64,000 nt of DNA from Eledone cirrhosa. Lineage: Eukaryota. Positions 9,507-36,737 of the stretch are shown here, in pieces. Location of the stretch: the NCBI GenBank assembly GCA_964016885.1, contig OZ024740.1:390848001-390912000 (forward strand), given 5' to 3'. The first letter of the stretch is position 1. Every line of letters starts with the position of its first letter. Under the pieces are notes generated by a model, which worked only from the letters and a program-made list of their open reading frames with translations, did not search any database and was not told the DNA's origin. Made by a program: the position numbers and the translations under genes.

Positions 9507-9566
<60 letters not shown>

Positions 9567-10179: not shown

Positions 10180-11300
10180 CCTCAAAGTTCCCGGATGCTC
10201 GAGAAATCATGGGAGTATTGCCAAGAGTTATATTCTTGTGTCATAGACCTCGAAAAGGCATAGGACCACGTTCCTCGGAGTCTGCTGTAGAGGGTTCTGC
10301 AGGAGTATGGAATCGATGATCAGTTTCTTGCTGCCCTGGTGTTTCTATATGAATGCCCGAGTATTTGTATATAAATGGTGCTAAATCGAAACCATTTAAT
10401 GTAGGAATCGAACTCAACCAAGGTTGCGTACTGTCACCTCTTCTGGACATTATGTAAAACCACTGGAATTTGCAGACGGCATGGTGTTACTTAACTCGAC
10501 AAAAGGGGATCACCGAATTGCACTTAATAGGTTTGATGCCGAGTGATGCATGGCTGGAATGAAAATCGGTGCAGCAAAAACTGAAACATTTATCGTCTCA
10601 AGAAACCCTGTGCAGTGCACTCTATATGAGAGTGAAGTTCCGTTGAAACAAGTGGAGAAGTTCAAGTTTCTCGAGCCGTGTTCACGAGTGATGGAAGGCT
10701 GAATTAAGTGCAATAATTGTGGGAGCTGGTGAAGTAATGTGCCAGCTTTAGCATCGGCCATCAGATGAAGGGAGTTAGGTGTAAAAGCCAAGCTCACTAC
10801 CTTCAATTTGGTATTCGTGCCAACCTTATGCCAATTCTTGGATAATGATCGAAAGAATACGACCGAAAGAATACGATCACAAATACAACCGGCCGAAATG
10901 TGATTCCTCCGAAAGGTCTTTGGAGTAACGTTACTCGATAAAGTGTGTAGCTCAGAGATCAAAGAATCACTCCAGGTAGAGCCGCTACATCCCCGAATTG
11001 AGAGACCACAGCTCCGATACTATGGGCATGTGGAAAGAATCGATGGACAGATTTTACGAGCAAAACCAGCCGGCAAGAGACACCAGGAGTAGACCCCAAG
11101 CAAGATGGTTGGATAACATCCATGAGCTTGGATTGTCTCGCTTGGAGATCCAGCTGGATCAGTCAGTTCAAGACGGCTGTTTCTGACAGGACCCGGTGGA
11201 GGAAAGTTACAGAGATCTGGCCCCTACGACCCTCCCAAGAAGAAGAAGAAGAAGAAGAAGAAGAAGAAGGGGAGGAGGAAGAGATGAAGAAGAAGAAGAT
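10180..11300 (+). mobile_element. RTE-clade (Expander/Rex3-like) LINE, 5'-truncated and degenerate, with (GAA)n tail
   Basis: Remnants LEKSWEY...IDLEKA, QGCVLSPLL, LKQVEKFKFL, FLRKVFGVTLLDKV; tail gaagaagaa from ~11238. Confidence 0.85.
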
Positions 11301-11402
11301 ATGTTTTTTTTTACTGCTTCTTTATTCTTTTTTCACTAGGTTTTTTACCACACTTTTTACTACCTTTATTATGTCTATTATTGTTATTATTATCATTTTA
11401 CC

Positions 11403-11740
11403 TGGATTGGCAGTAGAGGGTCGGACGCCATGCTTTGACGTATAGAGTTACGGCCCTTGCCATTCTGAGTTCAAATCCCGCCGAGGTTAACTTTGCCTTT
11501 CATCCTTACGAGGTCTATAAAATAAAGTACCAGTAATGCACTGGGTAATTGCTGGCATTGTGCCAAAAGTAGAAACAATTATTATCATTACAATTAAGTT
11601 CAAATCCCGCCGAGATTAACTTTGCCTTTCATCCCTACGAAGTCGATAAAATAAAGTACCAGTCACGCACTGGGTCGATTTAATCGACTTTCCCCTCCCC
11701 CAAAATTGCTGGCCTTGTGCCTATATAAGAAACCATTATT
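11403..11740 (+). mobile_element. Two tandem SINEs (second 5'-truncated, longer 3' variant)
   Basis: SINE core twice. The second ends ggccttgtgcctatataagaaaccattattat. Confidence 0.9.
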
Positions 11741-12462
11741 ATCTTGCTATTATCAGCATCAAAGATGGTATTATTTAATGGTTTCTCGATTGTTTATACA
11801 CGCACTTACTGTGTGGCATGAACACGGTAGAACATAACTGATGTCTCAGTGGTAATAATAAAAGTATCACAGGACCCGCTAGACCCAGAATAGATATAGC
11901 TGTAGCAATAAATTTGGAGTGCCCTAGGACAAGTGAGGGATGGGGAGAGCGGGAGAGACAAAAGCAGTAACAGTGGAAGTTATATATTTCACAGAAACGT
12001 TCTTAGGAATGTGATGATGTAACCTTATTGTTATACATAAACTGGATGACTATAGATGAATGCGTACGCACACTTGTGTTGATGTTGTTTTATAGTCTCC
12101 GATTTTATTGAAAGGACAAGAAATTGAAATCATTCTGTCATCACTTGAAATATTTAGTACAACCCCAGGAGTTAAAAAAAACCCTCCATTGAAAGAAATT
12201 GGTACACAAAAGAATAGAATTGTTTATCATTTTTAAGAAAACTGTTTTAGCGCCATAAACAGGAGAGGCGAGTCATATAGTCTCTTGACTTTCGCGAACA
12301 TGATTGTGTTAACCAACAACATATCGACCCACCCACAGAATTGTATTAACATCTGATGACGTCACGCTAGTGCAGGTTGCTGTTGTAACGATTGCACAAC
12401 TGCTTCATGTCGGTGTCACAAATATACGTATAATAATAAATATGATTATTTAACTTCTATAA

Positions 12463-12465
<3 letters not shown>

Positions 12466-12547
<82 letters not shown>

Positions 12548-12556
12548 CGTGTGTGT
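12466..12556. repeat. (TG)n microsatellite
   Basis: Directly visible. Confidence 0.95.
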
Positions 12557-13225
12557 TTAAACAAGCAAGAGGTAAATGACTACAGTTGGTGTATGTGTAT
12601 TAATATATTGACTGAATTTTCAATCTATAAGTATGCATCAATGTAACTATATCAGTTGTGAAGAAAGAAAAATATATGTAGAAATGTTATGGAGATTATT
12701 ATCCAGATACCTATTTCTTTAGGATTTTGTCTGACATCTCCAAGCAACTGCATAAAATCTTCAAAGAAAGGTAATCTTCTCGCAATATATATTTATCATT
12801 CTTATTGGTATTTGATATATTTTTTCGAAATCGGAATATCTAGTGCAAGCAAGGTAGAGGATATCTAGTTTTCTTTTTTTAATGCATTTATTGTTTCTCA
12901 GATTTGTGGTTTACGATTTGGTATCTTCATTTCTTTTTTAATATTTATTTCCCAAAATGCATTACGGTTTCTTCCAATAGATCGGCTCTTAAACGAAGCA
13001 AAAGCAACATCATACAAATCAAAATGTGTTACCTTTGTTAAATTTATAAATTTAGGAATTTATAAATTTAATTTATAATAAATTGAAGTGAAAGCAACTG
13101 GTGCGTGTGTTTCTTATTGGCAACATGACCCTCCCAAAGCATAACAATATCGGTTTCAACACACGTTTTCAGATAAAGAATCTTGCTAAACAAATTCAGA
13201 AACGAAATATATATATATATATATA

Positions 13226-14434
13226 CGGGATCTTCTGAAACTAACACCACATTCGACGTTAGTATGGGCGCCAGCGATTCTGCGGAGGTTACTGATCTTG
13301 TCGGCCTTTTCCTTCTTTTCTCTATCAAGGACGAATTCCACAACGTGGGCGGTGGTTTGTACCGTGATGATGGTCTTTTGACCATGACTAAGTGCAGCCC
13401 ACGTGCTTGCGACGCGTACAGAAAAGAACTCACAGCCTTCTTTAAAGGTTTCAACCTCTCTATACAGGTTGAGGCCAACCTCTCGGTCGTTAATTACCTC
13501 GACGCTACCCTCAATTTATCGAATGGCTTGTATTACCCGTATAGAAAGCCGAATGATACGCTTAATTACTTATGTAAGCATTCTAACCAGCATAACCAAG
13601 AACCTGGTAAGAAACGTTTCTTTGAGGCTTTTCCGTCTATCTACTAACGAACATATTTTCAACGACCATTCGACATATTACAATGAAGCTCTTGCTCGGA
13701 GTGGATTTGTCGATAAAGTAGCATATACAGAGTACGAGAATAGACCTAGAAGAAATAGATCCCGACGCATTATATGGTATAACCCACCATATAATATAGA
13801 GGTGGCCACACCATTAGCTAAGCTCTTTCTATCCCTTATTACGAAGCATTTTTCCCATACACATAAATATAGTAAAATTTTTAATAGAAATACTATTAAA
13901 ATTTCTTACTCTACGACTCCTAACCTTGCACAGAACATCACAGCTTCAAATTTAGCTAAACTACCTAGCCGTAGGAACACGTGCAACCCTGTAGTTAGTA
14001 CTAACTGTAATTGTAGGAATCGGGTTGATTGCCCCCTATCCGGGAAATGCCTCTCTAGTAACATTGTCTACAAATGTAAGGTTGAAACACCCACGTCCCG
14101 TAGGGCCTACATAGGGTTAACCGCCAATAGATTCAAGCAGCGTCTTTACATGCATACCCATTCTTTTCGTTACCCTCTAAGAAGGAATATGACGTCACTT
14201 TCAGCTTATATCTGGATTCTAAAAGACAACCACACCCAATATAAGTTACACTGGGAGATCCTAGCTAGGGCTAGATCGTTTAACGGAAATAAAAGACCAT
14301 GTGACCTCTGCGCCGCTGAGGCCCTGGAAATACTCTACGACACAGACCACATCTTAAACAAAAAATCTGAGGCAATTTCGGCTTGTAAACATAAATTGCA
14401 CAAAACTTTCCTGTACTACAGCCCCACATTATAA
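13226..14434 (+). mobile_element. Penelope-like retroelement (Neptune-type), 5'-truncated RT plus GIY-YIG endonuclease, one frameshift near 13590
   Basis: FDVSMGASDSAE, GGLYRDDGL and VNYLDATLNL (RT); IIWYNPPY; Cys-rich linker CNCRNRVDCPLSGKC; NIVYKC...AYIGLT...FKQRLYMH (GIY-YIG); CDLCAAEALEI. Begins immediately after a (TA)n tract. Confidence 0.9.
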
Positions 14435-15010
14435 CCTAACGGATAGTACGATCTATATGCGGATATTTTACGTCTGGATGTGGTAGCTAAGTATATGTTA
14501 TGTTTATACCATTACTTATTTGCATAGGTAAGTATATATTACCTGTATGTTTTGTGAAGGTACTTATACTTTCTCGTACGTATATTTGATTGTATATGTT
14601 ATGGCGTATATTTTATATATTCTGGTACATATACTTTTGGTTATGTGTATACGTGAGTTTTGCGTCTGTGTGAGTATGCGGGTTCGTACGTATGTAGGGT
14701 GTGTGTATGTGTGTACTTAATGTTTTGGTTAACGTACGTCTCCAAACATATGTGTATTTACATGTAGGTATGTGTGTGCGCTTGTTATATACATATTTAT
14801 TTATTTATATACGTTTATTTAATTATTTGTATACACGCACTCACACACACACATATTTATATACCTATGGCGAGTGTTTTCGCGTATGCTTGTGTATGTA
14901 CGTATATGGATGCGTGTATGTATTTATTTAATTTCAATTACCTCTGTATTTTATTTACTTTATTCTTAACTCTGAAGCCGAGAATCATTCGGTTTCCTAG
15001 TTAGAATTTT

Positions 15011-15280
15011 GTCTACGACTTCAGTTATACCATTTACGTGGTTTTGTCTTTGCGTGCAATTGTTCTCCACGCTCCACATATGACGTATTATCTTCGTTTT
15101 TTCCGTTCATTGCCAGAGAACGTCTCTATGAACAACCTAAGAGAATATTAGTCTTCGACTTCTTTTATACCATAAACGTGGTTTTGTCTTTGCGTGTAAT
15201 TGTTTTTCACCGCTCCAAATAATGACGTATTATATTCGTTTTTTCCCGTTCTTTGCCAGGGAACGTTTCCACGAACCAAA
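15011..15280 (+). repeat. Diverged ~140-bp tandem duplication downstream of the Penelope ORF
   Basis: gtctacgacttc...gtggttttgtctttgcgtg...gacgtattat...gaacgt recurs at 15011 and 15151. Confidence 0.8.
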
Positions 15281-15914
15281 GTATCGTCTTCCTGTCTTCC
15301 TCAGGTTGCAACGTTTTTTTAAATATCCACTTCTGCGTTTACAGATTGACTTTGTTAGTTTCATAAATACGAGTCTTTACATCTTCAGACTTCTATTTAA
15401 TCATATCTCCTCATTCACTAATGATTTCATTTCTATAGGCTCCAATTTCACTAATTTACGAATTAATTTATCTTTTGTATTAATCCACTCAGCTTATCCC
15501 TCTGGTGGATGAAAAATCAGTTTTATTTTTGCAATTTCTATCTTCCTAGATACTTTCGTCTAACTCTTTGAATCTCCGTAATGATGATCCCATATTTCAT
15601 TTCCTTAACTGCTTCATTCTTTTAGGCAAGCAATTTACTAGTTAACTTACTAATTTACTATTATCTATTACTTATAGAATCGTTAATTTATTTATCAACT
15701 AAGGGTATTCTTCTAACAACTAATGAGTAAGATTACATTTTACCTATTAATCTATTTATTCATTAATTTATGCATTTTCTCATTAATATATATCTGGGTA
15801 CTTCTAATATTAAGTAAAATGATCAAACAGTCTAACAGTTTTTTCCTTCGCTCACACCACAACACACCCTGGCTGGTCAACTTACAGAGCAAGTTCCTTT
15901 TCCTTATTCATAAT

Positions 15915-16130
15915 TGTTTCTAATTTAGGTACAAGACTAACAATTTTAGTGGAGGAGAAAGTTGATTAAATCTATCCCAGTGCGTTACTGGTATTTTGTT
16001 TTATCAACCCCGTAAGAATGAAAGGCAAAGCTAACCTCGGTGGGATTTGAACTCAGAATGTAAAGGGCCGTAGCTATATGCTGCAAAGCATGACGTCCAA
16101 CGCCCTTCCATTATTGCCAATCCACCGCCC
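15915..16130 (-). mobile_element. SINE, reverse orientation
   Basis: Reverse complement of the SINE core. Confidence 0.85.
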
Positions 16131-17199
16131 TCCCCTTATTTATAATCTTTATGTATATACTATATGTGTTTACACACCTTAAGTTCTCCCATCATCGTTT
16201 TTTTTGTGTTATTGGCATTAACCATTTTAGTGGAGTGTTGCCTGTTTTCCGTAAGCGAGCCTGATAGAGTGTAGACATATTTCTGTTATTCCCATACAGC
16301 AAATGATATCGTTTTCATCCCACACGTTGTGACCAGTGAACATTCTTCCGTAATGGTGCTGTGTCCGTAAATTCAAATTTCGTCAGTTTCTCTTTTTTAA
16401 CAAAAGAGAGAAGCGAGTGATTTACTTGGTTTTGTCATCCTTTCCCTTCATTTTTTTTGTTTTTTTCATAGATATATTTATTAAAACCAAATTTATTTTA
16501 ATGAATATTTAATAAAATTACATTCATTTTATCCATATATGTGGATGAATTCGCTTCTACGTTATTTTCATGTTCTAGCATAGTAGAAATTAAATCTTCT
16601 TAATTTTAATAGCTTTGAAAATATGTTATCTTGTAGTAAGTTGCTACAACGCATATTTAATTATTAGATAGTTTAACAAATTCTCTATATAAACCCATAG
16701 AAAAGGAAAAAATAGTGTACAGAGTCGCCTGTGAGAATTGAACTCACATCTGCAGTATGATAGACGGTTGTGTTACAAATGCAGTAATAGTAACGCAGTC
16801 GTTCCATATACGGCATGTGTGAGTTACATTTCGACAGGCGACTTTGTACCCTTTTTTTGTATCTATGGGTATATATGCACAACTTGTTTGACAATTTCTT
16901 TGTCAAACCTGTGTTGTAGAAGTTAACAAAATTCAAACTCGCTCGACGCCGCATAAACCGACAGTTTCTTAATTCTAATAAATATTAAAATATAAGTAAT
17001 TTTATTAAACAAAAAAAAAAAAGAAATGACGACAAAAATAAGTTTATCATTCGATTCTCTTCCTTCCTAAACAAAAGAAAAGACCATAACTTTCTACTCA
17101 GTCAACTGCAGTTCTATTCATTTATGTACGCACATAAACATCCCCAGCTTTCAGCTAGTGTGTGTTGCCTATAATCTACTCATCTGAAAATACAGTCAA

Positions 17200-17271
<72 letters not shown>

Positions 17272-18027
17272 TTTCTTTCCAGCTCTCTCTTTCCTTCTTC
17301 CGCCCCCTTCTACCAATCTATCTCTATTTAGCCAATCTATCAACTATCTCCATTTAGTGCTCCCTTGCACCTGAATTTATCACATTCTCTGACTAGCATT
17401 AAGTAAATGCAGATAACCAATTTCTTCTCTTTCATTATAATCTTCATTTATATATTACTTTAAGGCTAACTTAAAATAGGTGATATTCTCCTGTTCAGTC
17501 ATCTCTAAGCCTTTATTCACATAATTTCAGAAACCTTCTGATAAACAGAGTTCATAGGAGTTACAGAATGCAGACTTTCCTGCTGCCCTCGTAAGAATTC
17601 TTCCAGAATAGCAGTAGCTTCTTGTTTAACCATGGGAATGGTCGATGCCTCCGCTTTTTCCCAACCATCTTGGAGCTCTGTGTGTATATTACGTGATCGA
17701 TTTTTCACGTATTAAATATAGCAATTGTAACACGTGTCTTTTTGTACTAAAGAGAGAGAGGAAGGTAAACTTTCTATATAGATAATAAACACAACCACAA
17801 GGATATGGTCCGAACATGGAAGAGCCGAACTCCCACTGTCAACGCCTCCATCTCTCTCGCCCGCCCCATCTCTCTGTATGGTGAGCAAATTGGATGGGGT
17901 CCCACGTGCTGGCCTCCCCACGTGCTGGCCTCCCCACAGCCCCGGCGGACAGTATGGAGAATTTCATTATATATATAATTTCACTCATCCATGATGTTGT
18001 CCTCGTTTATTATATATTAAATGTAGG

Positions 18028-18237
18028 ACGCTAGATTGGCAGAATCAGTTGAACGTCGGACAATATGCTTAGCGGTGTAGAGTTATGGCCATTTACGTTC
18101 TGAGTTGAAATTCCGCCGAGGTTAGCTTTGCCTTTCATCCTTACGGGGTCGATAAAATAAAGTACCAGTAATGTACTGGAGTCGATTTAATCGACTTTCC
18201 CCTCCTCCACAATCGTTTGTCTTGTGTCTAAACCATT
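18028..18237 (+). mobile_element. SINE
   Basis: SINE head, core and long 3' variant. Confidence 0.85.
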
Positions 18238-18575
18238 ATATACTAAATGTACTTTTTAACCAGACAATTTATGAATAAATTATTTTCCAGATTAATCTAT
18301 GTAGTAAGTAATACATCAACGAAGCGAGGTCATCATCACCTTCACCTGTCTTCATATCTTATTCCTTCTCTGTTGATACATTCTTTTACACACTGTAATA
18401 ACTGAAGAATTTATCCACTTATTAATTTATTTCATTGATTATCTTTCGATCTCCTGCTAGTGGCGAAAAAGCTAATTTACGTATTATTTTTTAATTAAGG
18501 ATCATGTCAGTAATAAATTTATTGATTCTCGTGGTATTTATGTATTTAGTTTAAATACATCCTCTCATTTAGATA

Positions 18576-18576
<1 letters not shown>

Positions 18577-18670
<94 letters not shown>
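18577..18670. repeat. (CT)n microsatellite
   Basis: Directly visible. Confidence 0.95.
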
Positions 18671-18674
<4 letters not shown>

Positions 18675-18872
18675 ATATATATAGTTTTGCGAAGTTTTTT
18701 ATATGAAATCGTGTGTCGAAACAAATATTGTTATACTTGGGGAGGGTCATATTTGTGTAATAACATTGCCAGAATTAATAACAGAACACACTCACTGTTT
18801 GGTTGGTTTTCGCTTCTGTGTCTTTTATATCGATTAATTTAATTTATTGACAACAACACGATGGTAACATAG

Positions 18873-18903
<31 letters not shown>

Positions 18904-19293
18904 ATAAGGGTTGACGGACCCAGCATATTTATCAATGCCAATACCGGTTGTATCTCAGCGTACTCAATGGGCAAAGTAAGATACATTACCAGAGTATACA
19001 CATAGTTATTTGCCTCAACACAACACACGTAAAACGGGTGCCTATAAGGTTCCCGGACTCGAGTTTCTGCCGCACTAATGCAGCAGTATATATATATAGG
19101 CCTCCTTATATATAGGCCTGGAAAGGGATGGGCTCCGCCTGGCTTAAAATGCCCAAGAAACCCTGCATGTCACTACGGCACCCCTACGACTCCATCAGGA
19201 AATACAGGACTATACTATATATGTGTGTGTGTGTATAACAATGAAGTATAAGTAAGTAGGTTAGAGATTACCTCATTTATTTTTTACATAGTC

Positions 19294-19352
19294 GCTGTTA
19301 TACGTATTTCGACGGTAACTGTTATATAACAGTTACGATATCATCAGATAGC
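19294..19352 (-). ncRNA. Degenerate minimal hammerhead ribozyme
   Basis: Minus strand gctat-CTGATGA-tatcgtaactgtta(ta)taacagttaccgtc-GAAA-tacgta-TA-acagc. Long palindromic stem II and palindromic stem III, with mismatches at the stem II base. Confidence 0.55.
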
Positions 19353-21290
19353 TATTACGTGAACAGAGTTCGGCTAGTTCACTTGGGGATCCAGTCGGAT
19401 CAATTGAATACTCGCTGGACCCACTGGAAGGCGAGGATTCTGCTCCCATGACCCTTCCAGGAATAAGAAGACGAAGAAAAAATTATTGATAATATTTTTC
19501 TGTCTGTCTTTCTCTTTTTTAATTTTGTATTTTGTTTCACATTTTATAAAATTTCATTTTACTTTTTGTTTATCTGATTTTCATATTTTATTCGTTTTTA
19601 TTAATTATATTTGTGTTTATAATTCATTTTTTTATTTTTTTTTTTACTATTCTCTTCTCTTTTCTCTTCTCCATTATCATTTCTTCTCTCACTATTTTTT
19701 AAATGTTCTTTTGTTTTGGAACAGTCGTAACATCAATATCTAATAATTTAATATCATTGTTACTGCCAGCTACTTCTTAGTTTATTACATTTTTATATTT
19801 ATGTTAGGTATTTTCCTATTATTTTTCAATTATGTCAGAATATTCTATTCTGGAAGTGACTAATATTCTCTTTTTCATCTTTATGATTTTACTACGTTCT
19901 TGATTCGTTCAAATTATTATCTATCAAAGCAATCAGGTAGTGTAATATTTGTAGGTGAGGTCAAGTATGCATAGAACCGCCTCTTTCAAAATTACCGACA
20001 GCTTAAAATCTATCTTACATTTCTTTCAAAAAATTGCATAACATAAAAAATGACAAACAATAAAATAAGATAAATAAAATAAAGATATTAGGGTGAAGTG
20101 TACAATGGTTTTGTGTTTAAGTTACAAAGTATGTTAAATATTTATTTCATGTAGTCACGAACGTGTTGAAAATTCTTTACATTCAAACATAAATCGCGTT
20201 GTAACGTGACAATATACTACAACGTTATAAGTCTCTACTTGTTTCTATTAGCAGTGAACTATAAATCGCCTTCTACAAGAAGGTAGGCATATAGTAGAAT
20301 CACTGCCACTGCCATCATGTAATTGCGTTATTATACTATTGTTTTATATATACAAATACACATACCACTCGGGTAATAAGAGTAGGAATCCACACCGATT
20401 CTTGTTGAGATAAATTATGTATTTATTTCTTATCACAAGCAGCTGCCAGTCGATACCTCTAATCAAACACATATATAGGCAGGTCGTTCTTACTCGAAGA
20501 AATAGCCACCAAATCTCCAACAACATGAAACATCATTGTTTAAAGAAATCAGGGACATATTTAAAGTATTTTTTAAAAAACTGCGGTGACCTCGGTTGCA
20601 GCACTTCCGTTTTCAGTGATCTGGTTCCGTGTTTGATTGTATTGTGTGGCCCCTTAGGCAAGCATTTTTCGATATATCCATGCATTTTGCAAAGCATTAT
20701 CAGTGGAAGTTAATAAACTTAAACGTTGTACAAGCCAGCTTCGATATATATGAATCAGTTGCATAAGACGAACGGACAGGTGCATTTTTACTTCGTCAGC
20801 CTCCTTGCTGTCATCCAATTTCGCGCATTAATGTAATAACAGCTTGCGCAAGAGATTGGAGAATTGCTCTCTAGATTCATGTGAGACGATAACTAAACAA
20901 ATAATGGGCAGGAAAACTTACAGGTGTCTTTCGACGAAAACCGAGAAAACACATCAATAATTAGGTTCGCTCATAAATAAACAACAGACTTAGCTTATAA
21001 AATGTTCACACTAGAAATATGAAAAAATTTGAAAATTTAGACTTTCATCAGAAGAATATGGTCAAATCACGGAGATTAAGAAAAGAGGTCTGCTACCTTC
21101 CAAAGTTGCATAATAAAAGATAGGATAAAGTATACAGGAAGAATACGAGAGAACTACAGTGAGAGAAACAATGAGAACGTGGAAGAGAGGGCAGCAAAGA
21201 GAGAGAAAAGGAAAGAGAGAAAGGGAAATAGGGACAGAGAAAATGAAATAAAGGAGGGAGTGGGTTATGTGAATAAAAACACCCAATATA

Positions 21291-21563
21291 TTGGGTTGGC
21301 CAAAAAAAGCTTTTAAGCAAAAATAAGACAATTTTTAAGCACAAAGCTATTTATTCAATAATAATATAATTACCGTTTCATTCTAGTATCTTCTGCCATC
21401 TTGTGCACAGATTAATTATTCCCTGATGAATTTCCTGTCTTTAGTGGCAGTGAAAAGTAGCTAATGAGTGAGCATACTTATGGGACAAACAGAAGTTAGT
21501 CACTTATTAGAGTGCATGAAGTTTAGTGTCAACAAAATCCGAACGGACTTTTTGCCAAACCAA
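21291..21563 (-). mobile_element. Internally deleted mariner element
   Basis: TA + ttgggttggccaaaaa ... tttttgccaaaccaa imperfect TIRs. Minus-strand GIINLCTRWQKILE*NGNYII matches a mariner transposase C-terminus. Confidence 0.65.
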
Positions 21564-21627
21564 ATTTCAACTAAATCTAATGCTTCATAAAGTAACAATA
21601 TATATATATATATATATATAAATAAGT

Positions 21628-21671
<44 letters not shown>

Positions 21672-21734
21672 TATATATATATATATGTTGTTATATTTGG
21701 AGAGGGACATATTGTTATAATATTGCCAGAAATA

Positions 21735-21990
21735 ATAATTGTTTCTACTTTTGGCACAAGGCCAGCATATTACTGGTACTTTATTTTATCGACCCCGTAA
21801 GGATGAAAGGCAAAGTTAACCTCGGCGGGATTTGAACTCAGAATGGCAAGGGCCGTAACTCTATGCGTCAAAGCATGGCGTCCGACCCTCTACCGATACT
21901 GCCAGTCCACCGCCAGAAATAATAATGATTTCTAGTATAGGCACAAGGCGAGTAATTTGGGGAGGGGAAAGTCGATTAAATCGACCCCTG
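21735..21990 (-). mobile_element. SINE plus 3' SINE fragment, reverse orientation, ~130 bp upstream of the last aquaporin exon
   Basis: Reverse complement of the SINE consensus. Confidence 0.85.
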
Positions 21991-22117
21991 TACGTACTGC
22001 CAATCCTCATTTCTCTCCTCCTGATACTTACTCAGCATCATCTCTGAAATAAAATAAAATAAAATCCAATTCCCTATTAACTATTTCTAATCTTTTCTCT
22101 TTTTCTTTTCTTTACAG

Positions 22118-22327
22118 GTATATTGGGTTGGTCCGATGTTGGGAGGTATCATAGGGGGTTTCACTTATGAATACACCCACGACTCATCCAATCAAATCCA
22201 GCATTTTCGAAGGTCATTTCGCCGGAAGCAAACAAACTTACGACGCAGCCGTAGTGTGAACTCCAGCAACAATTCAATGTCTACTGAACTTACCTTCTCG
22301 CCCACAGCTGAACAGCCACGCATTTGA
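22118..22327 (+). CDS. AQP4-like: Aquaporin (AQP4-like) terminal coding exon: TM6 and cytoplasmic tail
   Basis: Long polypyrimidine tract + tttacAG|GTA. VYWVGPMLGGIIGGFTYEYTHDSSNQIQHFRRSFRRKQTNLRRSRSVNSSNNSMSTELTFSPTAEQPRI*. Joins in frame to ...EDHW, giving the canonical HW-VYWVGP. Confidence 0.95.
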   Translation, partial: VYWVGPMLGGIIGGFTYEYTHDSSNQIQHFRRSFRRKQTNLRRSRSVNSSNNSMSTELTFSPTAEQPRI

Positions 22328-22399
22328 CTAGATGCACCTGAAGAAGAGTGTGAAAGTCCTGAAGAAGATGCCAGTCAACATGAAATGGACCGATTTTAG
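22325..22399 (+). other. Candidate stop-codon readthrough extension (UGA-CUAG), X-LDAPEEECESPEEDASQHEMDRF*
   Basis: TGA CTAG at 22325-22331, then 23 sense codons, then TAG (22397-22399) TGA (22400-22402). Confidence 0.6.
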
Positions 22400-22507
22400 T
22401 GAACACTTACAGATTACTGACGAAGCAAGAATTGTATCGCTTGCGTATACATGTTGTATAAAAATTCACACCCACCCACATATATAAGCATATATATATA
22501 TATATAT

Positions 22508-22666
22508 CCGGGTTCAATCGGGGGTAACCACAGTAAGTAAGGTACTCAATACAAAGCAGAGTATAAATATTTAATGTAGAAAGGCTTCTACAGGACTAGA
22601 ACTGTTTCATTCCGGAGAAGTCATCAGGAAGTTCTAGTCCTGTAGAAGCCTTTCTACATTAAATAT
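22508..22666 (-). mobile_element. Short fold-back element between (TA)n tracts with a hammerhead-like core in its loop
   Basis: Perfect 37-bp inverted repeat 22567-22603/22630-22666. The minus-strand loop reads CTGATGA-c-ttc(tccg)gaa-t-GAAAC. Confidence 0.6.
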
Positions 22667-24244
22667 ATATATATATATATATGTGTGTGCGAATATATAT
22701 GTATACATAAGTATACACGCACATAGATACGCACACACACACACATATATATATATGTGTGTGTGTATGTGTGTGTGTGTATGTGTGTGTGTATGTGTGC
22801 ATGTGTGTGTGTATGTGTGCGTGTGTGTGTGTGTGTAGATAATAAAGGAAACAAAACAAACACGGGAATGCAAAAATACACAATTATATTAAGTTTATGT
22901 TTGGAGGAAATTGGGGGGGGGGCAACGTTTCGGACAGAAGTCCTTCATCAGGAAAGTTAGGAAAGGAAGTTAGGAAACGTGCGTGTGTATGTGTGTGAAA
23001 GTTAGGAAACGTGTGTGTGTGTTTGTGTTCAGATATTGAGATGGCTAAGATAAAACGAAAAAAACACTTAACGTCATACACTCCCAATAGATACACTCAT
23101 ATATACACACTCATATTTATTAGCCATGCCTGAGAAAAATATATATGGATATATTGTATGTATTTCTTTTAATATCCATTTATCTCAATATATATAATAA
23201 GTATATACTTTCTAGTTCCTCTTTACTGCAGAGGTGGCTATATATCTTAATTTATTATCGCTCTAAATATGAATTTATTTTTATATTTATGAGCTCTCTC
23301 CGTCGTTATGCATATATAATGTGTGGATGTACATAAATATTTACAATATTCATGAAATTGCTATAATCGTTTCCATACATACAGCATTGCTTCGTCTATT
23401 GAGGTGGGTAAAATGTCTATTTCCTGTATGTAATGGCAGATAATCCAGGATTGAGAATATAACACATTTCCTAACTTACAACAACAAAAAACAAAACAAC
23501 AAAAAACAATGCAATGTTATATAAACCTTTTTTCCGAATTGTTTCTAAACCAATTACACGTAATTTATTACAAATGGTGTTTATATAATTTCTGTGTATA
23601 CCTGATCAGTAAACCAAATTTGCGACACGGCCTAAAGGCACGAATAATATCTTTGGGTTTGGGCGTATGTAACGTACATTCCATTCTATCTCCTCCTTTC
23701 TTTCTCTCTATCTATCTATCTACATATCTATCTATCTTTCTTTCTTTCTTTTTCTCACCTATTTTTCTTTCTGTCTCCGAAATATAGGAGATAGTTGTCT
23801 TCTTAAAAAAAGAAGCAAATATGATATTCATTTGTATAGATTTATAAATGCATGGTGGATTTGATGTATATAACCCCGGCAACTTGTGTAGAAAAAAAGT
23901 CAATACTATTAAATATTCCAGTATTCAATAAACATCGAATCATATTGATCATAAGGTTATTAATCGTAACCTTTGTGAGGGTGAAACAGTATCGATCCCA
24001 TAATCATGATCCCATACCATATTTAACAAATTTCATGAAGCCTGCGTAATTTCAAACTAATAATGATTTGATGGACTGACGATTCTTTATGTTTTATAAA
24101 CAATGATTTGAAATATTGTAAGATTGCACTTTTTCTGTTGTCGTTATCATAAGTCAAACATCAACGCCAACCTTTCCTATCACTTCAATATCTGATCCTG
24201 TGTGTATAATCTCATATTTAACTTAATTGTTTTATTTTGAGTAA

Positions 24245-24900
24245 TAATAGTTTCTTATATAGGGACAAGGCCAGCAATTTTGGCGGAGGGTAAAGTCGAT
24301 TAAATCGAGCCCAGTGCGTGACTGGTACTTTATTTTATCGACCCCGTAAGGATGGAAGGCAAAGATAACCTTGGCGGGATTTGAACTCAGATCGTAAAGG
24401 GCCGTAACTCTATGCAGCAAAGCATGGTGTCTGACTCTCTACCGATTCTGCCGCCCTTTGTTTTGAGTAATAGTAACTATATCAACGCTGGTGAAAATAT
24501 CTTAGAGGATGGCACATTAATAGGCGTTCGCTAATTATTATTATTATGGTGGATTGGCAGTATCGGTAGAGGGTTGGACGCCATGCTTTGCTGCATAGAG
24601 TTACGGTCCTTGCCATTCTGAGTTCAAATACCGCCGAGGTTAACTTTGCCGTTCATCTTTACGGGGTCGATAAAATAAAGTACCAGTCACGCACTGGGGC
24701 CGATTTAATCGACTTTCCCCTCCCTCAAAATTCATGGCCTTGTGCCTATATAAGAACGGTGGATTGGCAGTATCGGTAGAGGGTCGGACGCCATGCTTTG
24801 ATGCATAGAGTTACGGCCCTTGTCATTCTGAGTTCAAATCCCGTCGAGGTTAACTTTGCCTTTCATCCTTACGGGGTCGATAAAATAAAGTACCAGTAAT
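24245..24900. mobile_element. SINE cluster (one minus copy 24245-24455, two plus copies 24547-24900)
   Basis: SINE consensus, ATT-rich flanks. Confidence 0.9.
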
Positions 24901-24919
24901 AAAGTACCGTAAGGATGAA

Positions 24920-27517
24920 AGAAAATGATGACAACAAAAAGCATCAATAATACTAATATGAATACTGTCTCCTCCACTACCAACACCAACACCATCACTG
25001 CAACAACAAATATAACAGAAGGAAACAACAAAAATAACACAGACAACAACGACAGCACCTGGCAACAACATAAACAACAATAACAACAACAACAGTAACA
25101 ATAAGAATAACAACAACAACAAAAGCGCAGATCTATGTGTGACCCCTCCAAACATAACACATACGAATCCGACAAAAAAAGGTGTTTCCTTCGCAAGAGC
25201 AAGCGGAAATGAATTAAGAGAAGCCAAAGAAATGTTTAAAAGGAGGGGTCACAATGTCAATCTCACACCTCAACACGACCTGCTGGAAAACGCGTTATGT
25301 TGTACGGTAACATGCCGTATAACTGGCGTGGAGTCACACCGGGTGGAGCGAGCCACAGAGACCCAGATCCAAAAGGCTTGCGGTTGCGTATGGGAACGCA
25401 AAACCCATATCGCCCGAGGAAGATGATTTGGGACTAGAAGAAGCGAGACCACACTCCCCAACAAATGAGCGAAGAAATCACTCTGCAGCCAACGTATAGT
25501 GGCCAAAGACTTGTACAAATAAGAGTAAGCCAGGTGCCGCCTACAATAGCTATCCCCTGGTTAGTGGCAGTGGTCCTTGGGGATGATGGGGAGAGCACAC
25601 AAACCCTCGAGGTGAAGAAAATGAAAATTAAAAACTGGTCAGGGTCTGGGATGGAACTTCTGCCCTCAGCAACAACCAAATAAACAAAAACCCTTTCCTA
25701 CCTACACCAAACTCCACACTGGCGCCATAAGTGGCCACAATATCACCAACGTAAACAATAGTAGAAGGTGCATCACCACCATCCACCACGCCAGAATAAA
25801 CACTCCTTGTAACAATACCAGAAAACATGCCCCACCCCTACACTCGAACATGCAGTGTAGCCGTGAGGGGAAGTGACAAATTATGAAAAAAGTGGACAAT
25901 TTGCCCACAAAACAATCAAATCCAAAAAAATACATCACACACATAAAACACACAAACACCAACACTAAGACAAATCTCCATAGTACCACCCAAACGACCA
26001 TCACTACCACCACCAACAGTAACACCACCAAGCTCACATCTATACCCAGCAACAACAACACAAAAGACAACGCCCAAATAGATCACACCACCAACAACAA
26101 ATACCGCAAAAACACATCAACTCCTCACACTACACAGCAATAAACATCAACAATAAACAATCTCCTCCACTACATACAATACAACACCAGCTTATCAGAA
26201 ACTATAAACACCAAAAAGAATTGCACCACCCACAAACATGAAAATTATTCCAATAGACCAAAGTACGTAAACAAAATTAAAAAAGAAATTCCCCAACGCA
26301 ATTGGGGACTTCCGTAGGCTAATATTAAGAACAATATATACGGACATTATTGTAAAAGAACCCACAACTGGCCAGAAGGACAAAGGTAAGTGGTCTTACC
26401 CACCTTTTCCCGCTCTTCATTCAACATGGCCTTACTCAAATTAGGTAAGTGGCCTGGGGTTGTCATGGAAGCAGGGTTACCTACTCAACTACCTCAGGTC
26501 ACTGAACATAGATGTGATAGCCATCAGCGAGACGAGAGTTTCCAAGGCACAAGCCTTAGCCTCCATTTTCGGCGGCTACAAGATGTATGCATCGCCAACC
26601 GTCCGGTATTGGATGCAGAGTCGCTGTGTTGTTTCGGAAACGCTTGGATCTCACGATACAGACCATCTTCCTTGACCCAGAAGGTAAGTAGGTAGTTGTG
26701 CTGGACGTGACCAGCAGCGAAGGCTATGCTTTCAGGCTAGTGGCTGTCTATGCCCGCCAGTAACAGGACGGCCTAATTTCTTCAGACGCCTTGAGACCTT
26801 TCCCGCTCTTTAGTGTTAGTTGGCAACTGGAACGGTATCTTAAATGCACGTTGGGATTGTGTGAGGCTAGCACATACAGGGGAGGATGTAAAAGTCTCGC
26901 AAATCTGCTCACACATTTCCAATTGTCTGACAGAAATCGATGGATTTCCCAAATATGCCAATATGGACATGGACAAATCGCTTCGGGTAATGCAGATCGT
27001 AAATAAATAGGGTATTTTGTAGGGAAGTATATATGGCTAACATAAGTTATCCACATTTCAAAATGGTCGACTACACAGACCACAAATTTGTAATCTATAC
27101 AGTCGACTTCGATAAGCTTCATAGACAGGGTCCAATTACTGGAAGCTGAACGCGTCCTTTCCGGTAAGCAAAACATACAGAGACAAGTTTAGTAAATTAG
27201 TTAAGCGTGCGTTGATGAAGGCAATCGTCAACAACAAATGGAGGTTTGCCCTGTAAAAGGGTGATTAGATTAGAATCAATAAGATTTACTAAAGGAGTAT
27301 TTTTAATGGGCTTTGTCAATGTGAGAACCTCCCTATTGGAGAATTTATTTTGTTTGAATTTTTTTTACATGTTTTCTTTGTTTTGTTATATGACTTTTTA
27401 CAGGCCAAAACCCACACTGTACCGTCCTGTACCGTCCTTAAAGTTGTATTCATGTGAGCCCTGCGTGGCTAATAAAGAAATCATTATTATTATTACTACT
27501 ATTATTATTATTATTAT
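24920..27517 (+). mobile_element. Tx1-clade LINE copy A, degenerate with large internal deletion
   Basis: ORF1 remnant RVERATETQIQKA; endonuclease remnant IDVIAISETR...YTDHKFV. Jumps to 3'UTR at ~27300 and ends aataaagaaatc(att)n. Confidence 0.85.
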
Positions 27518-30500
27518 TTCATTTATCTTGCTTTATGTTCATACGAGTTAACACCAAGTCACAACCACTGACCTCAAGAGACAACAAGGTCCGCCATGTT
27601 CAAGAAAAAACACATACACACATGCATGTATCTTTAGGTGTTTAGACTTGTGATGTACTTATATTGACAGAATCTTCCTTGGTATATGAGCAGTTCCTAT
27701 TAGTACTATTTTTTGTATTTCTTCTACACATGGGTTTCCTGGGATTTGGGGTAAGTAATCATTAGACCCCTTAGGTATCATTCCCAGAGCGCCTACAACC
27801 ACTGGTATTGTTTTAGTTCTCAACTTCCACATTTTTCCAATCTCTATCTCCAGGTCTTTATACTTGCTCAATTTTTCAAATGTTTTTTATAGATACATTC
27901 TTGTCTATTGGAACGGACATATCAATTAACAGGCATACCCTCTTTTTAAAGTACTTCAGTATTATATCAGGTCTATTTGCATCTAATTTTCGGTCTGTTT
28001 GGATGCTAAAGTTCCACAAAATTGAGATGTGACCTTTTTCAAGCGCGGGAAGTGGTTGATGCTCCCACCAATTCTCTTGATGGGACAAGTCAAAATGTTT
28101 ACACATTACCCAATGTATGTATTGTAAAAACTCTGTCGTGCCTGTTTGGGTATTCGGTTGGAGCTCTAGAGCTGCACATTGAAATTATATGATCAATGGT
28201 TGTTTTTTACATACACGGCACAATGGGTTGCATCCATTTTTTATGATGTTAGCTTGATAATTTTTTGTTGGCAGACACTGATCTTGTGCTGATATAATTA
28301 GTCCTTCAGTCTCCCATTTCAGTCTAGAGGATGCCAACCACTGATGGGTTAAAGTTTTGTCAACATCAGGATTGTTAGCTCTTTCTGGTTATTTTCCATA
28401 CAGAGGCTTTTCTTGCCATTTCTTAGCCAGTCTTTGTAGCAATTCTTTCTTTGCAGTTACTTTTACCTGCTTTGCTATTTCTGTGTTTTCCATTTCAGCA
28501 GTAAAGGGAACTTCTGAAATTTGTAGTCCATTACTGTATCTTTGTGCATCTTTTGTAATGGAGTATGATCTGTTGATGCTTTCGTGTTTCAAAACGAGTT
28601 TGATCATCCAATCATGTGATTCCCTTAGATATGTAGATAATCCAATTGTTGCAGTTTTCAAAGAAATATCTAACTGGATTAATCCACGCCCTCCTTCTAT
28701 CAAGCCTACGGATCTCTGTGCTTGACCAGTTGATGACATTGAAACTGTAAGTTACTACTGGTATGGCAAGTGTGTTTATAGTATCGATCCTATTCCTTGC
28801 ATTCAACTCCGTTCTTAAGATTGCTCTTACTCTGCGGTAACATTCCTTTCTTATCCTTTCCCTCATTGTCGAGTGTTTGATTCGATTCCGTCTCCTTCAC
28901 AAACACCTAGATATTTGTAAGTTTCCTTTTGATCAAGTTCTCATATCACATTCCCCCAATCAAGATTAATGTCTGAACTTCTCAGCAGGTTTCCTCTGGT
29001 GAACGTAGCTTTGGCGCATTTATCTAGTCCAAACTCCATTTTAATGTCATCACTGAACTGCTTCACAGTGGATAATAGCCCTTGCAATTGCTCATCATTT
29101 TTTGCGAATAGTTTCAGGTCATCCATGTAGAACAAGTGATTAATGGTTTTGTCATAGACTTTATATCCATGTTTTGTTTCATTGAGCATTTTACTTAATG
29201 TATAAGTGCGATGCAGAATAAACGCTATGATAAAGAGTCACCCTGAAAAATTCCACAATTAATATTAACTTCTCCAGCTTCCAGTGATTTTTTTCCCTAT
29301 TCAAAATGAGTGTTATTTTCCATGTCTTCATACTGAATGACAGGAACCTCCTGACAAATGGAGATATTTTGAAAATCTCTAAACACTTTTCAATCCAACT
29401 GTGTGGCAAACTATGAATTGCTTTTTTGTAATTTATCCAAGCAATTGATAGATTGTTGTGTCTATTATGACATCTTCCAGTATCATTTTGTTAAACAAAA
29501 GCTGATCCTTACAGCCATATGAGCCTCGTATACACCCTTTCTGCTCATTGGGAAATAGATCATTTGTTATCAGGTGATCATATGTATATTCAGTTAGGAT
29601 TGATGTTAAGATTTTATACATTGTGGTCAAGCAAGTTATCGATCTGTAATTGTTGGGGCTTATTTGTCTCATCATTCTTCGGAAGTAAGAATGTAATGCC
29701 GTTAACTAGCCATGACGGTATCTTTTCTGGCTCCTTAACCATTTGATTGTAAAGTTGGGCTAACAGCTCATGAGACTCTGAGAAGGCATTTATCCAAAAA
29801 TTTGTTATTTTGTCTTTCCCTGGAGATTTCCATTTGCTGGATTTTCTAAGAGCTAAACGCAGATGCTCAACTGTTATATTTTCCCGTGTTTGTTCCTCAA
29901 GGTGAACTGTATCTTTCATTTGTCTGTCTATCCATGGAGCATGTATATTATGAACTTTTTATTCGGCCCAGATCTTTTTCCAGAATTCTTGAACTTCCTC
30001 CTTGGGTAGTATTGATTTAGCAGTTATTGTTGACTTGCCAATTTTTCTGTAGAAGTTTTTTTGGCTGTTTTTTAACATATTATTGTCCTTATAGAATCTA
30101 GAGCGTTTTCCAAAGCGCCTTATACGAGCAGCTTTGGTCGATACTCTTTGCTTGATTGTTTCTGTCATCATGTCTATGTCGCTTGTTGATTTTATATTGT
30201 ATTTTCTTTTCAATTTTCTAAGTTTAGTTTGTTTAACATGTTCACCTACTTTGTAGTTTGCTAAAATTTCTATGTTAGATCGGAGAAGGTTTATTTGGCG
30301 ATTGATGTTCTCTTGACAAGTAAGTTTTTGTGGGCATTCCTTTGTTTCTTCATTTTCACTCTACATAAGTGAGTAGTGACTTTAGCCGATGCATAGTGGT
30401 GATGATTTACATCAGTAATGTTTAGCTTATTTGTGGTGATAATGTCTTTGAGAGCTATGCGAGTCTTGTGTATTATCCTCTGGTTTTGTTTGGAGTTATG

Positions 30501-31439: not shown

Positions 31440-33234
31440 CAGTTGCATTTATCTTGCTTTATGTTCATACGAGTTATCACCAAGTCACAACCAGTGACCT
31501 CAAGAGACAACAAGGTCCGCCATGTTCAAGAAAGAACATACATACACACACATGCATCTTTAGGTGTTTAGACTTGTGATGTACTTATATTGACAGAATC
31601 TTCCTTAGTATATGGGCAGTTCCCATTAGTACTATCTTTTGTATTTCTCCTATACGCGGGTTTCCTGGGATTTGCGATAAGTAATCATTAGACCCCTTAG
31701 GTATCATTCCTAGAGCGCCTACAACCACTGGTATTGTTTTAGTTCTCAATTTCCACATTTTTCAAATTTCTATCTCCAGGTCCTTATACTTGCTCAATTT
31801 TTCAAATGTTTTATAGATACATTCTTGTCTATTGGAACGTACATATCAATTAGCAGGCATACCCTCTTTTTAAAGTCCTTCAGTATTATATCAGGTCTAT
31901 TTGCATCTATTTTTTGGTCTGTTTGGATGCTAAAGTTCCACAAGATTGAGATGTTTTCTTTTTCAAGTATGGGAGCTGGTTGATGCTCCCACCAATTCTT
32001 TTGATGGGGCAGGTCATAATGTTTACACATTATCCAATGTATGTATTGTGCAGCTCTGTCATGCCTGTTTATGTATTCGGTTGGAGCTATAGGACTGCAC
32101 ATTGAAATTATATGATCAATGGTCTCTGGTTGTTTATTACATACACGGCATAATGGGTTGCATCCATTTTTTTATTATGTGGCTTGGTAATTTTTTGTTG
32201 GCAGACACTGATCTTGTGCTGATATAATTAGTCCTTCAGTCTCCCATTTCAGTCCAGAGGATGCCAACCACTGATGGGTTAAAGTTTTGTCAACATCAGG
32301 ATTGTTAGCTCTTTCATACAGAGGCTTTTCTTGCCATTTCTTAGCCAGTTTCTGTAGCAGTTCTTTCTTTGCAGTTACTTTCACCTGCTTTGATATTTCT
32401 GTGTTTTCCATTTCAGCAGCAAATGGGACTTCTGAAATTTGTAGTCCATTACTGTATCTTTGTGCATCTTTTGTAATGGAGTATGATCTGTTGATGCTTT
32501 CGTGTTTCAAAACGAGTTTGATCATCCAATCATGTGATTCCCTTAGATATGTAGATAATCCAATTGTTGCAGTTTTCAACGCAATATCTAACTGGATTAA
32601 CCCACCTCCTCCTTCTTTCCTAGGGAGATGTATTCTATCTGTATCTGCCTTAGGGTGGTGCATTCTGTGCATGGTTAAGAATTTTCTAATTTTTGTATCG
32701 AGCCTACGGATCTCTGTGCTCTGACCAGTTGATGACATTGTAACTGTAGGTTACTACTGGTATGGCAAGCGTGTTTATGGCATCGATCCTATTCCTTGCA
32801 TTCAACTCCGTTCTTAAGATTGCTCTTACTCTGCGGTAACATTCCTTTCTTATCCTTTCCCTCATTGTCGAGTGCTTGATTTCGTCTCCTTCACAAACAC
32901 CTAGATATTTGTAAGTTTCCTTTTGATCAAGTTCTCTTATCACATTCCCCCGATCAAGATTAATGTCTGAACTTTTCAGCAGCTTTCCTCTGGTGAACGT
33001 TGCTTTGGCGCATTTATCTAGTCCAAACTCCATTTTAATGTCATCATTGAACTGCTCTACAGTGGATAATAGCCCTTGCAATTGTTCATCATTTTTTGCA
33101 AATAGTTTCAGGTCATCCATGTAGAACAAGTGATTAATGGTTTTGTCATAGACTTTATATCCATGTTTTGTTTCATTGAGCATTTTACTTAATGGAATAA
33201 GTTCGACGCAGAATAAAGGCGGTGATAAAGAGTC
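31440..33234 (-). mobile_element. Dong/R4-clade copy 2, 5'-truncated within RT
   Basis: Closely similar to 27518-29240. CCHC (CRVC...DHIISMC) and RLE present. Breaks at DSLSPPLFC; (ATT)n at 31419-31439. Confidence 0.9.
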
Positions 33235-33235
33235 G

Positions 33236-34206
33236 TCAGTATCGGTGGAACATCCACCTCGGCGTTCTATAGAGGACTAGTGGAGGGGAAGAGCGACGAC
33301 ATTCTCGGAGATTTCCTGGGCCTCGAAGAAGATCAGCTGTTTGCTCTCTTCCGGAGAACTTTCAGCCCGAGGCCTATGGATAACTTCCAAAAATCCCTGG
33401 CCTGGCAGTGCTACGGGGGAGCGCTGCCGGTTCGAGATAAGCTCTACAGGCACGGAAGTGCCGTCAGCCGAGCCTGTCCGAGATGCGTGCAGAGCGACGA
33501 AACCGTTGTGCACGCACTCGTTCAGTGCCCGAGCATTGCTGACTTGTGGAGCTATGTCGAACAGTTGCTGTCGCGTGTGGGACTGATCCGGTTGTCGACT
33601 GAGTCCATTGTGCAGATGGTCTCGCCGTCTTCCTTCGAGGAGGAAGGGCAGGCGGTTTTCATCTGCCTGGTGGCCATGGCGAAAGAGATTGTGTGGTGGA
33701 CAAGGTTAAAAGGGTTAAAGACAGACACTTTCCTCTTCGGCGAATCCCTAATTAACTTTTTCAAGTTTCACTTGAAGAAGAAAATCAGGGTGGAGAGGCA
33801 AGTGCTGCCTTCTAGCAAGTTTGTTGAAAGGTGGGTGAATGTAGCGAGAATGGTCTGAGTGAACGGGACCACTCTGAATATACGTCTGTAGTTTGAGAGA
33901 TGGAAAAATTGAGAGAGGGCGCTTGCCCTGGTGGTCAGGGTGGCCGTGGTCTTTTGTGTGGTTTTCGCCACGAGTAACCCTCGGAGGTTTCCCCCCTATT
34001 GGAGAATTTTTCATTGTTTCAATTTTCATTTTTATTGTTTATATATATATATGTTTCTATGTCCTTTTTTTCTTTTCTTATATAAATAATAAAAATATTT
34101 ACACGCACAAAACCCACATCGTACCGTCCTGTACCGTCCTGTGCCGTCTGTAATGTTTTTCTTGATGTCAGCCCTTGTGGCCAATAAAGAAATCATTATT
34201 ATTATT
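33236..34206 (+). mobile_element. Tx1-clade LINE copy B, 5'-truncated
   Basis: ORF 33280-33858 with CPRCVQSDETVVHALVQC; 3'UTR ends gcccttgtggccaataaagaaatc(att)n. Confidence 0.9.
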
Positions 34207-34207
34207 G

Positions 34208-34407
34208 AATTGGCAGTATCGGTAGAGGGTTGGACGTCATAGTTTGATGCATAGAGTTACGGCCCTTGCCATTCTGAGTTCAAATCCCGCCTAGGTTAAC
34301 TTTGCCTTTCATCCTTACGGGGTCGATAAAATAAAGTACCAGTAATGCACTGGGATAATTGCTGGCCTTGTGCCAAAAGTAGGAACAATTATTATTATTA
34401 TTATTAT
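34208..34407 (+). mobile_element. SINE in the ATT tail of Tx1 copy B, with its own (ATT)n tail
   Basis: SINE consensus flanked by attatt repeats. Confidence 0.9.
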
Positions 34408-34625
34408 TGAATGCTATGGTTGACGGAGGCACGGCTCTGTAAGGTATTGTAAATTTTGAACGCTATAACAATTGTAAATTGTTTAAAACTTTAACGAACT
34501 TGTAGACAAAAACACCCTCCTCCTCGTGAGAGGGGCCTTTCTGTCCGTTATTTGGCCCTTCGGGGTTAAATAACTGCTTATTGGGCTTTTGTGCCCAATA
34601 TTTATTTTAAACAAAAAAAAACAAC

Positions 34626-36702: not shown

Positions 36703-36737
36703 GTGGTCTTTCCCATCTTTTCCACTCTATTTTAAAC

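Follow-up and report, generated by a model that had tools for sequence, protein, structure and literature searches.

A cephalopod aquaporin of the Blip clade very probably carries the comparative signature of programmed stop codon readthrough. The gene ends in the window, the whole 64,000-nucleotide stretch of the Eledone cirrhosa genome analysed here, and we propose that readthrough of its TGA-CTAG stop likely yields a minor isoform of 318 residues. The TGA lies at 22325-22327 on the + strand and the CTAG at 22328-22331. Behind the stop, 23 codons remain open at 22328-22396 (LDAPEEECESPEEDASQHEMDRF), and a tandem TAG TGA at 22397-22402 closes this second frame. An earlier note on this DNA had pointed out the arrangement; it is exact in the sequence and unchanged through CTAG in a spliced transcript contig. 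The seven bases of the stop and its context (22325-22331, + strand) are predicted to be leaky, and they are rare: 141,877 bases of DNA from the same genome, counted on both strands with the window site included, contain 4777 TGA triplets, of which 8 are followed by CTAG.

The extension (+ strand) has a net charge of -9; of 1552 peptides of 20-28 residues that lie between two stops in DNA of the same genome, a single one is as acidic. The composition given in the earlier note was right on every count: 12 of 23 codons have G at the first position, 10 of 23 residues are Asp or Glu, and 30 of 69 bases are G or C. The last of these had been offered as a sign of coding, for which it is weak, since 43% GC lies within the 32-57% spread of the window's own 2-kb bins. 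A stem-loop stimulator 3' of the window stop gave no signal (z -1.07, +1.08 and +1.20).

Is this TGA the true end of the annotated frame? The coding frame comprises 198 + 27 + 69 = 294 residues over three exons, and the first stop is indeed its true end. Exon 1 (198 codons) was located by a MIP-family search of the 3.0-Gb genome around the window at G000:C1:390703012-390703605, outside the window and ~149 kb upstream of exon 2. Exon 2, which has 27 codons and encodes the second NPA loop, lies at 4722-4802 (+ strand) and is also present in the spliced contig. At the end of the last intron (4803-22117, + strand; GT...CAG, phase 0), the X4 contig departs from the window at 22117, and its loose part corresponds to exon 2. 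The coding part of the last exon (22118-22324, + strand, 69 codons) encodes helix 6 and the basic cytoplasmic tail to EQPRI. The O. bimaculoides and O. sinensis proteins, named 'aquaporin-4(-like)', are identical at 284 and 285 of the 294 residues and the Argonauta protein at 265, and these three full-length named octopod proteins all end in EQPRI like the window gene.

Transcript evidence comes from run X4, among 4 runs of one organism in one study. A single 1016-base contig, recognised as spliced by alignment, joins all three exons and continues beyond the stop, with TGA-CTAG unedited. Over 384 bases, its sole true difference from the window is an A>G at 22384, a synonymous change from GAA to GAG. 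This one site, which may be either an allele or an A-to-I edit, lies 57 bases behind the stop in the Glu codon of HEMDRF. The contig passes 22500, and the probable 3' UTR runs from 22403 to 22846 (+ strand), with its first AATAAA at 22841. A 42-base, 98% complementary inverted repeat lies within it at 22562-22671. As a dedicated element of the 3' UTR this hairpin was ruled out because it is a common, high-copy MITE-like repeat (1489 candidates, 40 scored).

The first intron is ~149 kb long (G000:C1:390703605-390852722), and its size is probably behind an O. vulgaris and one O. bimaculoides record (P0013, P0015) that end after exon 1. Partial exon-1 duplicates are present in O. sinensis and O. 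vulgaris (P0068, P0201, P0202). LINE-like retroelement pieces, with long frames and matches to reverse transcriptase and endonuclease, occupy window positions 33229-48255 and 59221-59889. Pfam has no match for two window frames, one inside the last intron at 13388-14434 (+ strand, 348 codons), which resembles the end of a Penelope-type retroelement, and one at 51808-52476 (- strand, 222 codons), which resembles a transposase piece.

The evidence that carries the proposal comes from relatives. A protein search with the last exon read through its TGA gave P0019 (Logan) as top match, with P0026 (ENA, 191-kb contig) as its cluster mate. These are two related protein records, cephalopod-type by likeness, and the comparison with them is at the amino-acid level only. 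Over 63 columns of the window's last exon they match at 60, which makes them more like Octopus in this exon than Argonauta is. Both have W exactly where the three named octopod proteins stop; P0019 reads EQPRI-W-LEQRTSPRNDSPDADDNHHEMERF-W-W and P0026 reads EQPRI-W-LEQRTSPQDEPLDVEDAQHEMERF-W. In each, 24 residues follow the first W, beginning with Leu and an acidic residue and ending in HEMERF, and W stands again at the place of the second stop (WW in P0019 and W in P0026, opposite the tandem TAG TGA). The window extension scores 39 and 34 against those of P0019 and P0026, values reached by none of 1552 null peptides and by 0 and 4 of 20,000 shuffles, respectively.

This likeness is confined to the second frame. 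P0019 and P0026 are identical at 15 of 24 residues in the extension and at 0 of 12 after the second W, and the window shares 1 of 12 and 2 of 56 residues with them beyond the second stop. The sole indel among the three extensions is one whole codon, and their middle has diverged while the ends are kept, including HEM[D/E]RF (22379-22396 on the + strand of the window, where the A>G of X4 falls). All three are acidic, with 7, 8 and 10 Asp or Glu residues; among 1552 null peptides, 9 are at least as acidic as 7 in 24. We simulated neutral evolution of the full pattern, chosen after the data had been seen: 22-24 open codons, a middle that has diverged and at least 5 unchanged residues among the last 6. 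None of the 10 settings, at 8000 runs each, produced it in more than 0.14% of runs, whereas 4-47% of neutral runs still had an open frame of 22-24 codons when nothing else was required. The earlier suggestion of a coding-like extension, 24 residues when the decoded stop is counted with the 23 codons, is thus borne out by conservation in P0019 and P0026.

Jungreis et al. describe, in the part of PMC5100048 consulted, the marks of readthrough as a kept frame, C after the stop, a kept second stop and a coding signal that is lost beyond it. The abundant readthrough of Drosophila and Anopheles treated there resembles the present case in its kept frame and second stop and in the loss of coding signal beyond. 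It differs in that the abundance arose after the split from the centipede, whereas we describe one mollusc gene with a vertebrate-type motif. Across orthologues the picture is mixed: frame and second stop are kept in P0019 and P0026 at the protein level, but TGA-CTAG is present at none of seven non-cephalopod loci.

What does W stand for in these records? We infer that it is TGA read under the gene caller's code, because six outside sequences have W at the family end and the true stop is known for two of them. The six, among the 177 proteins listed, are P0019, P0026, P0005, P0033, P0038 and P0040; TGA stands at this place in the DNA of P0033-type loci, and the W of P0038 coincides with the end of named abalone proteins. 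As far as protein records go, W-L-E in P0019 and P0026 fits TGA-CTAG, but Leu followed by a codon starting with G is encoded as CTAG in only 8 of 76 background cases, so that conservation of the motif as nucleotides is at most possible. Protein records cannot separate TGA from TGG, and a real TGG would make the long protein constitutive in these relatives and the octopod extension a relic or weakly used, in keeping with the drift of the window extension in its first 16 codons. However, family-end W recurs in P0005, P0033, P0038 and P0040, with the P0033-type and P0038-type ends known to be stops, and non-cephalopod members end at the same position, so that one stop would have to be lost and then regained. 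We consider a genuine TGG very unlikely.

Readthrough by the ribosome is also to be weighed against changes to the message itself. If the AG of CTAG (22330-22331) served as a splice acceptor, alternative splicing would remove the stop in frame. Five phase-1 GT sites in the last exon could join to it in frame, with introns of 78-201 bases, and an acceptor here would also account for the kept Leu + G. Yet the donors are poor matches, only 11 of the 21 bases before the AG are pyrimidines compared with 17 of 21 and 20 of 21 at the two real acceptors, and the X4 contig has no such joint (though contigs drop rare forms). We regard such splicing as very improbable.

Cephalopods edit RNA heavily, and in a fraction of transcripts A-to-I editing could replace UGA by UGG (Trp). 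The spliced contig does differ from the window by an A>G, its only difference, at 57 bases past the stop, and the 42-base hairpin at 22562-22671 lies further along the message; heavy cephalopod editing is also mentioned in the part of PMC5868278 consulted. Against this, the contig has A at 22327 (one contig, which rare forms may escape), the hairpin is a high-copy repeat without pairing to the stop, and editing has no need of CTAG. We judge editing of the stop to be extremely unlikely. Selenocysteine would suit a UGA with a short frame behind it, but no SECIS family is among 36 Rfam matches with E up to 5 over 22100-28000, orthologues end in TAA or TAG, and none of the proteins compared has Cys at the place of the stop. 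The chance that this UGA encodes selenocysteine is next to negligible. We thus retain readthrough of the TGA as the preferred reading.

How far does the motif extend outside cephalopods? A metagenome scan gave seven loci from 52 pattern matches under four record prefixes. Read as DNA, their stop contexts are TAG GTCC, TAA CATA (twice), TAG CATG, TGA ATAG, TGA CGAC and TGA CGCC, with the frameshifted L031 scored at its family-type end and L032 scored after an extra intron. That intron lies within the last exon at ~1167-1406 and is missing in L028 and the window. Four of the seven loci end like named bivalve proteins (EDLRL), and the second frames of these four are short or unrelated. Three bivalve-type copies under one record prefix (L027, L030 and L031) fit a local expansion like the many Dreissena copies. 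Among prokaryote genome contigs, 46 matches came down to one locus, L033, a bacterial false match excluded from all counts, and 30 pattern matches in viral contigs included no relatives.

Other family members have frames of their own behind the stop. P0038, near-identical to Haliotis P0103, continues after the annotated end DDPEV with W-L-G and 19 acidic-leaning residues. This W-L-G is compatible with TGA-CTAG in abalone, though weak when taken alone (chance 76/4776). After the family-end W, P0005 reads W-R and P0040 reads W-A. The P0005 frame (RCKRQCERILGYEYK...) agrees with the L028 extension at 4 of 15 positions in register (R1, R4, Y12 and E13) and may be its diverged homologue.

The two TGA-C loci, L028:1105-1152 and L032:1484-1531, have with protein P0033 a common, different extension, RLQRLLLD[K/S]KWYEDY, in frames of 15, 27 and ~22 codons (L028, L032 and P0033, respectively). 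Behind the TGA, 41 of 45 bases are identical between L028 and L032, with 2 synonymous codons and 1 replacement codon. In the coding region, by contrast, 51 codons specify the same amino acid in both, and 36 of these differ (Fisher p 0.0004), so that synonymous sites there are close to saturated; of the 60 bases that follow the block, only 14 agree. Of the three variable codons, two fall within or next to the loop of a predicted hairpin of 8 pairs, and the stem-loop z behind the stop is -0.57 in L028 and -2.20 in L032. In this spiralian-type lineage, the 45-base block directly behind the UGA-C stop is constrained at the nucleotide level. Most simply it would be a second readthrough signal, and an untranslated element also fits.

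This lineage bears on the cephalopod block as well. An untranslated RNA element, such as a microRNA or protein site near the start of the 3' UTR, would make the frame and the motif by-products, and another lineage's 45 bases conserved beyond coding need show the kind of constraint expected of one. The packing of cephalopod conservation into the last 6-7 codons agrees with this as well: of 9 identities, 5 fall within the final 6 positions (hypergeometric p 0.018). However, an element of this kind does not account for three sequences that are all open and acidic, an indel of exactly one codon, an in-block change between Asp and Glu or a likeness that ends at the second stop. We regard the RNA element as distinctly unlikely and a translated extension as the better reading of the cephalopod block.

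To which aquaporins does the gene belong? The earlier note called it AQP4-like and its extension a candidate equivalent of AQP4ex. It is AQP4-related and has the same motif, but it falls outside the vertebrate AQP4 clade and groups with protostome Blip. In a 28-row tree without vertebrate AQP0/1/2/5, used in place of a 65-row first tree that was distorted by one-exon fragments, the octopod proteins fall in one clade of 15 (support 93/93) with nemertean, priapulid, bivalve, gastropod, centipede, scorpion and horseshoe-crab members. The Blip clade adjoins this genome's Bib-like gene (81/56), vertebrate AQP4 is separate (100/100), and a deeper branch common to Blip, Bib, AQP4 and two other rows has support 93/94. 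The window gene is a cephalopod Blip, of a protostome Bib-like clade, and at best a co-orthologue of AQP4. Since it groups with arthropod Blip and apart from AQP4, 'AQP4ex equivalent' is a working likeness, and we do not claim orthology to AQP4.

Blip was named as an AQP4-related, Bib-like clade in PMC12135271, which in the parts consulted describes it in arthropods only and has no account of readthrough. 'Octopus' and 'Priapulus' have no match in 12 of the 13 files of its supplement. The horseshoe-crab member P0028 matches the start of Tachypleus Blip1 in the alignment of that supplement at ~90%, by a translation made by eye. Named arthropod Blip proteins and the octopod gene fall together, separate from Bib, and have the tail motif RRSFRR in common. 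The MIP fold is supported by PF00230 matches in the genome search and by two NPA motifs in the octopod proteins; Pfam finds no match in P0018, P0019 and P0033. The best solved-structure match of the channel is AQP4 (E 1.8e-79, compared with 2.8e-62 for AQP2). A separate Bib-like gene extends over ~840 kb of contig C4 in the same genome (L007, L011 and L013).

The octopod channel may also differ in what it conducts. The selectivity-filter His of AQP4 is Gln here (L002:1453-2046, exon 1, helix 5) and in all three named octopod proteins; the residue is His in cephalopod-type P0065 and P0179 and Asn in Lineus. Loss of the filter His gives glycerol permeability in Eglp and EglpL, according to the part of PMC12135271 consulted, so an altered selectivity of the octopod channel is possible by analogy.

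How would the second frame be used? Aquaporins form tetramers, and a low rate of readthrough could therefore reach many channels. We propose that the CUAG context weakens release-factor recognition, that a few percent of ribosomes therefore accept a near-cognate tRNA at the UGA and that the tandem TAG TGA terminates the extension at 318 residues. At 5% readthrough, ~19% of tetramers would contain an extended subunit. Rates of this order are on record: in the parts of PMC4132726 and PMC5868278 consulted, AQP4 readthrough is ~7% in HEK cells with no need of RNA structure, and UGA-CUAG gave 1.3-6.7% in all 17 further human contexts in the same cells. Of the 23 human UGA-CUAG genes in the same sources, most show no coding signature, and the presence of the motif is hence no proof of function by itself. 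OPRL1, OPRK1, MAPK10, MDH1, LDHB and VDR, as described there, resemble the octopod gene in the motif, a short conserved second frame and independence of RNA structure; unlike it, they are all vertebrate, and the peroxisomal signal is missing from the octopod end D/E-R-F.

The effect of the extension on the protein can be read from its residues. As the earlier note had it, an acidic block is added to a basic tail: the net charge of the tail would change from +6 to -3, and the end QPRI would give way to HEM[D/E]RF on a variable acidic linker, with [D/E]-R-F in each of the three cephalopod-type sequences. Constancy of the end beside a linker that is free to vary points to a docking or sorting signal, which would place or anchor the tagged tetramers as AQP4ex does. 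The class III PDZ ligand consensus is an end of the form D/E-x-hydrophobic. The ends of all three cephalopod-type sequences fit this pattern, and a PDZ partner for the candidate [D/E]-R-F end is plausible.

The closest parallel is AQP4ex itself, for which a role in glial, perivascular anchoring is described in the part of PMC7762321 consulted. The two have the same seven-base stop context, extensions of similar length (28-29 codons in AQP4ex and 23-24 here), a Leu-acidic start and an end that is the best conserved part (PMC4132726, PMC5868278 and PMC9138620, as far as consulted). They differ in clade, the octopod gene being a protostome Blip outside vertebrate AQP4; in the tail before the stop, LSSV (SSV-type) in AQP4 and EQPRI in octopods; and in the filter residue, His in AQP4 and Gln in octopods. 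Human AQP4 continues after its stop as TGA CTA GAA GAT CGC, L-E-D-R (Table S1 row of PMC5868278). The human AQP4ex epitope DRTESRQDSLELSS corresponds to codons 3-16 and contains the phosphorylated Ser335. The sources consulted, seen in part, trace AQP4ex only to jawed vertebrates, and its serines are partly conserved even among these.

Could the two extensions share one origin? Aligned ungapped from the stop with human codons 3-16, P0019 scores 22, with R4, T5, R8, D10 and S11 in common, including the RxxS of Ser335; none of 5177 null 14-mers of UTR type scores as high, and 2 of 4208 of tail type do (shuffle p 0.0008). P0026 scores 18 (1 of 5177 and 10 of 4208 null 14-mers, p 0.0055). The window extension scores 1 (shuffle p 0.33), and four further extensions also show no match, which leaves 2 of 7 that do. 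Nine long TGA-type frames have Arg at codon 4 in six cases (background 457/7317) and Asp or Glu at codon 13 in eight (background 410/7317), both as in human, and neither residue occurs in the two long frames that follow TAG or TAA; the AQP4ex likeness and both positions were noticed before testing, and the sequences amount to about five related groups.

These likenesses might indicate that AQP4/Blip readthrough predates the protostome-deuterostome split, with AQP4ex and the cephalopod extension derived from one bilaterian isoform. We think this rather unlikely, because the testing was post hoc, the related groups are few and the serines are only partly conserved. The history that it entails is just as doubtful: readthrough kept in vertebrates, cephalopods, the TGA-C spiralian-type lineage with the 45-base block and perhaps abalone, and lost in bivalves. 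The absence of the motif from all seven non-cephalopod loci tells against simple deep conservation. Of the two histories that the earlier note had left side by side, deep conservation in its simple form has thus lost ground, and parallel gain is likelier than one ancient origin. Most likely, readthrough would be a gain in cephalopods, or a retention within Blip, in parallel to vertebrate AQP4ex.

We found no published readthrough of an invertebrate aquaporin in the literature searched. An annelid aquaporin supplement has no matches for six motifs in the part consulted (PMC8700629), the main text of a Drosophila preprint lacks aquaporin, bib, Drip and Prip (PMC13278127), and 'Octopus', 'mollus' and 'aquaporin' are absent from the main text of PMC5100048. 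The mechanism is known already; what appears to be new is where it occurs, in gene and in lineage, and the parallel with AQP4ex.

Why does a second frame in one octopod channel matter? No functional readthrough product of the mammalian brain has been studied as thoroughly as AQP4ex. Cephalopod brains have a glial barrier. An extension behind UGA-CUAG in cephalopods would mean either that the same recoding evolved twice in one gene family or that it dates from the protostome-deuterostome level and is more than 550 million years old. A single origin, if true, would make cephalopods an outside test of what the extension does. Either way, the extension would open a first way into the function of Blip, which was named as a clade only recently, and annotated cephalopod proteins may miss a selected C-terminal isoform.
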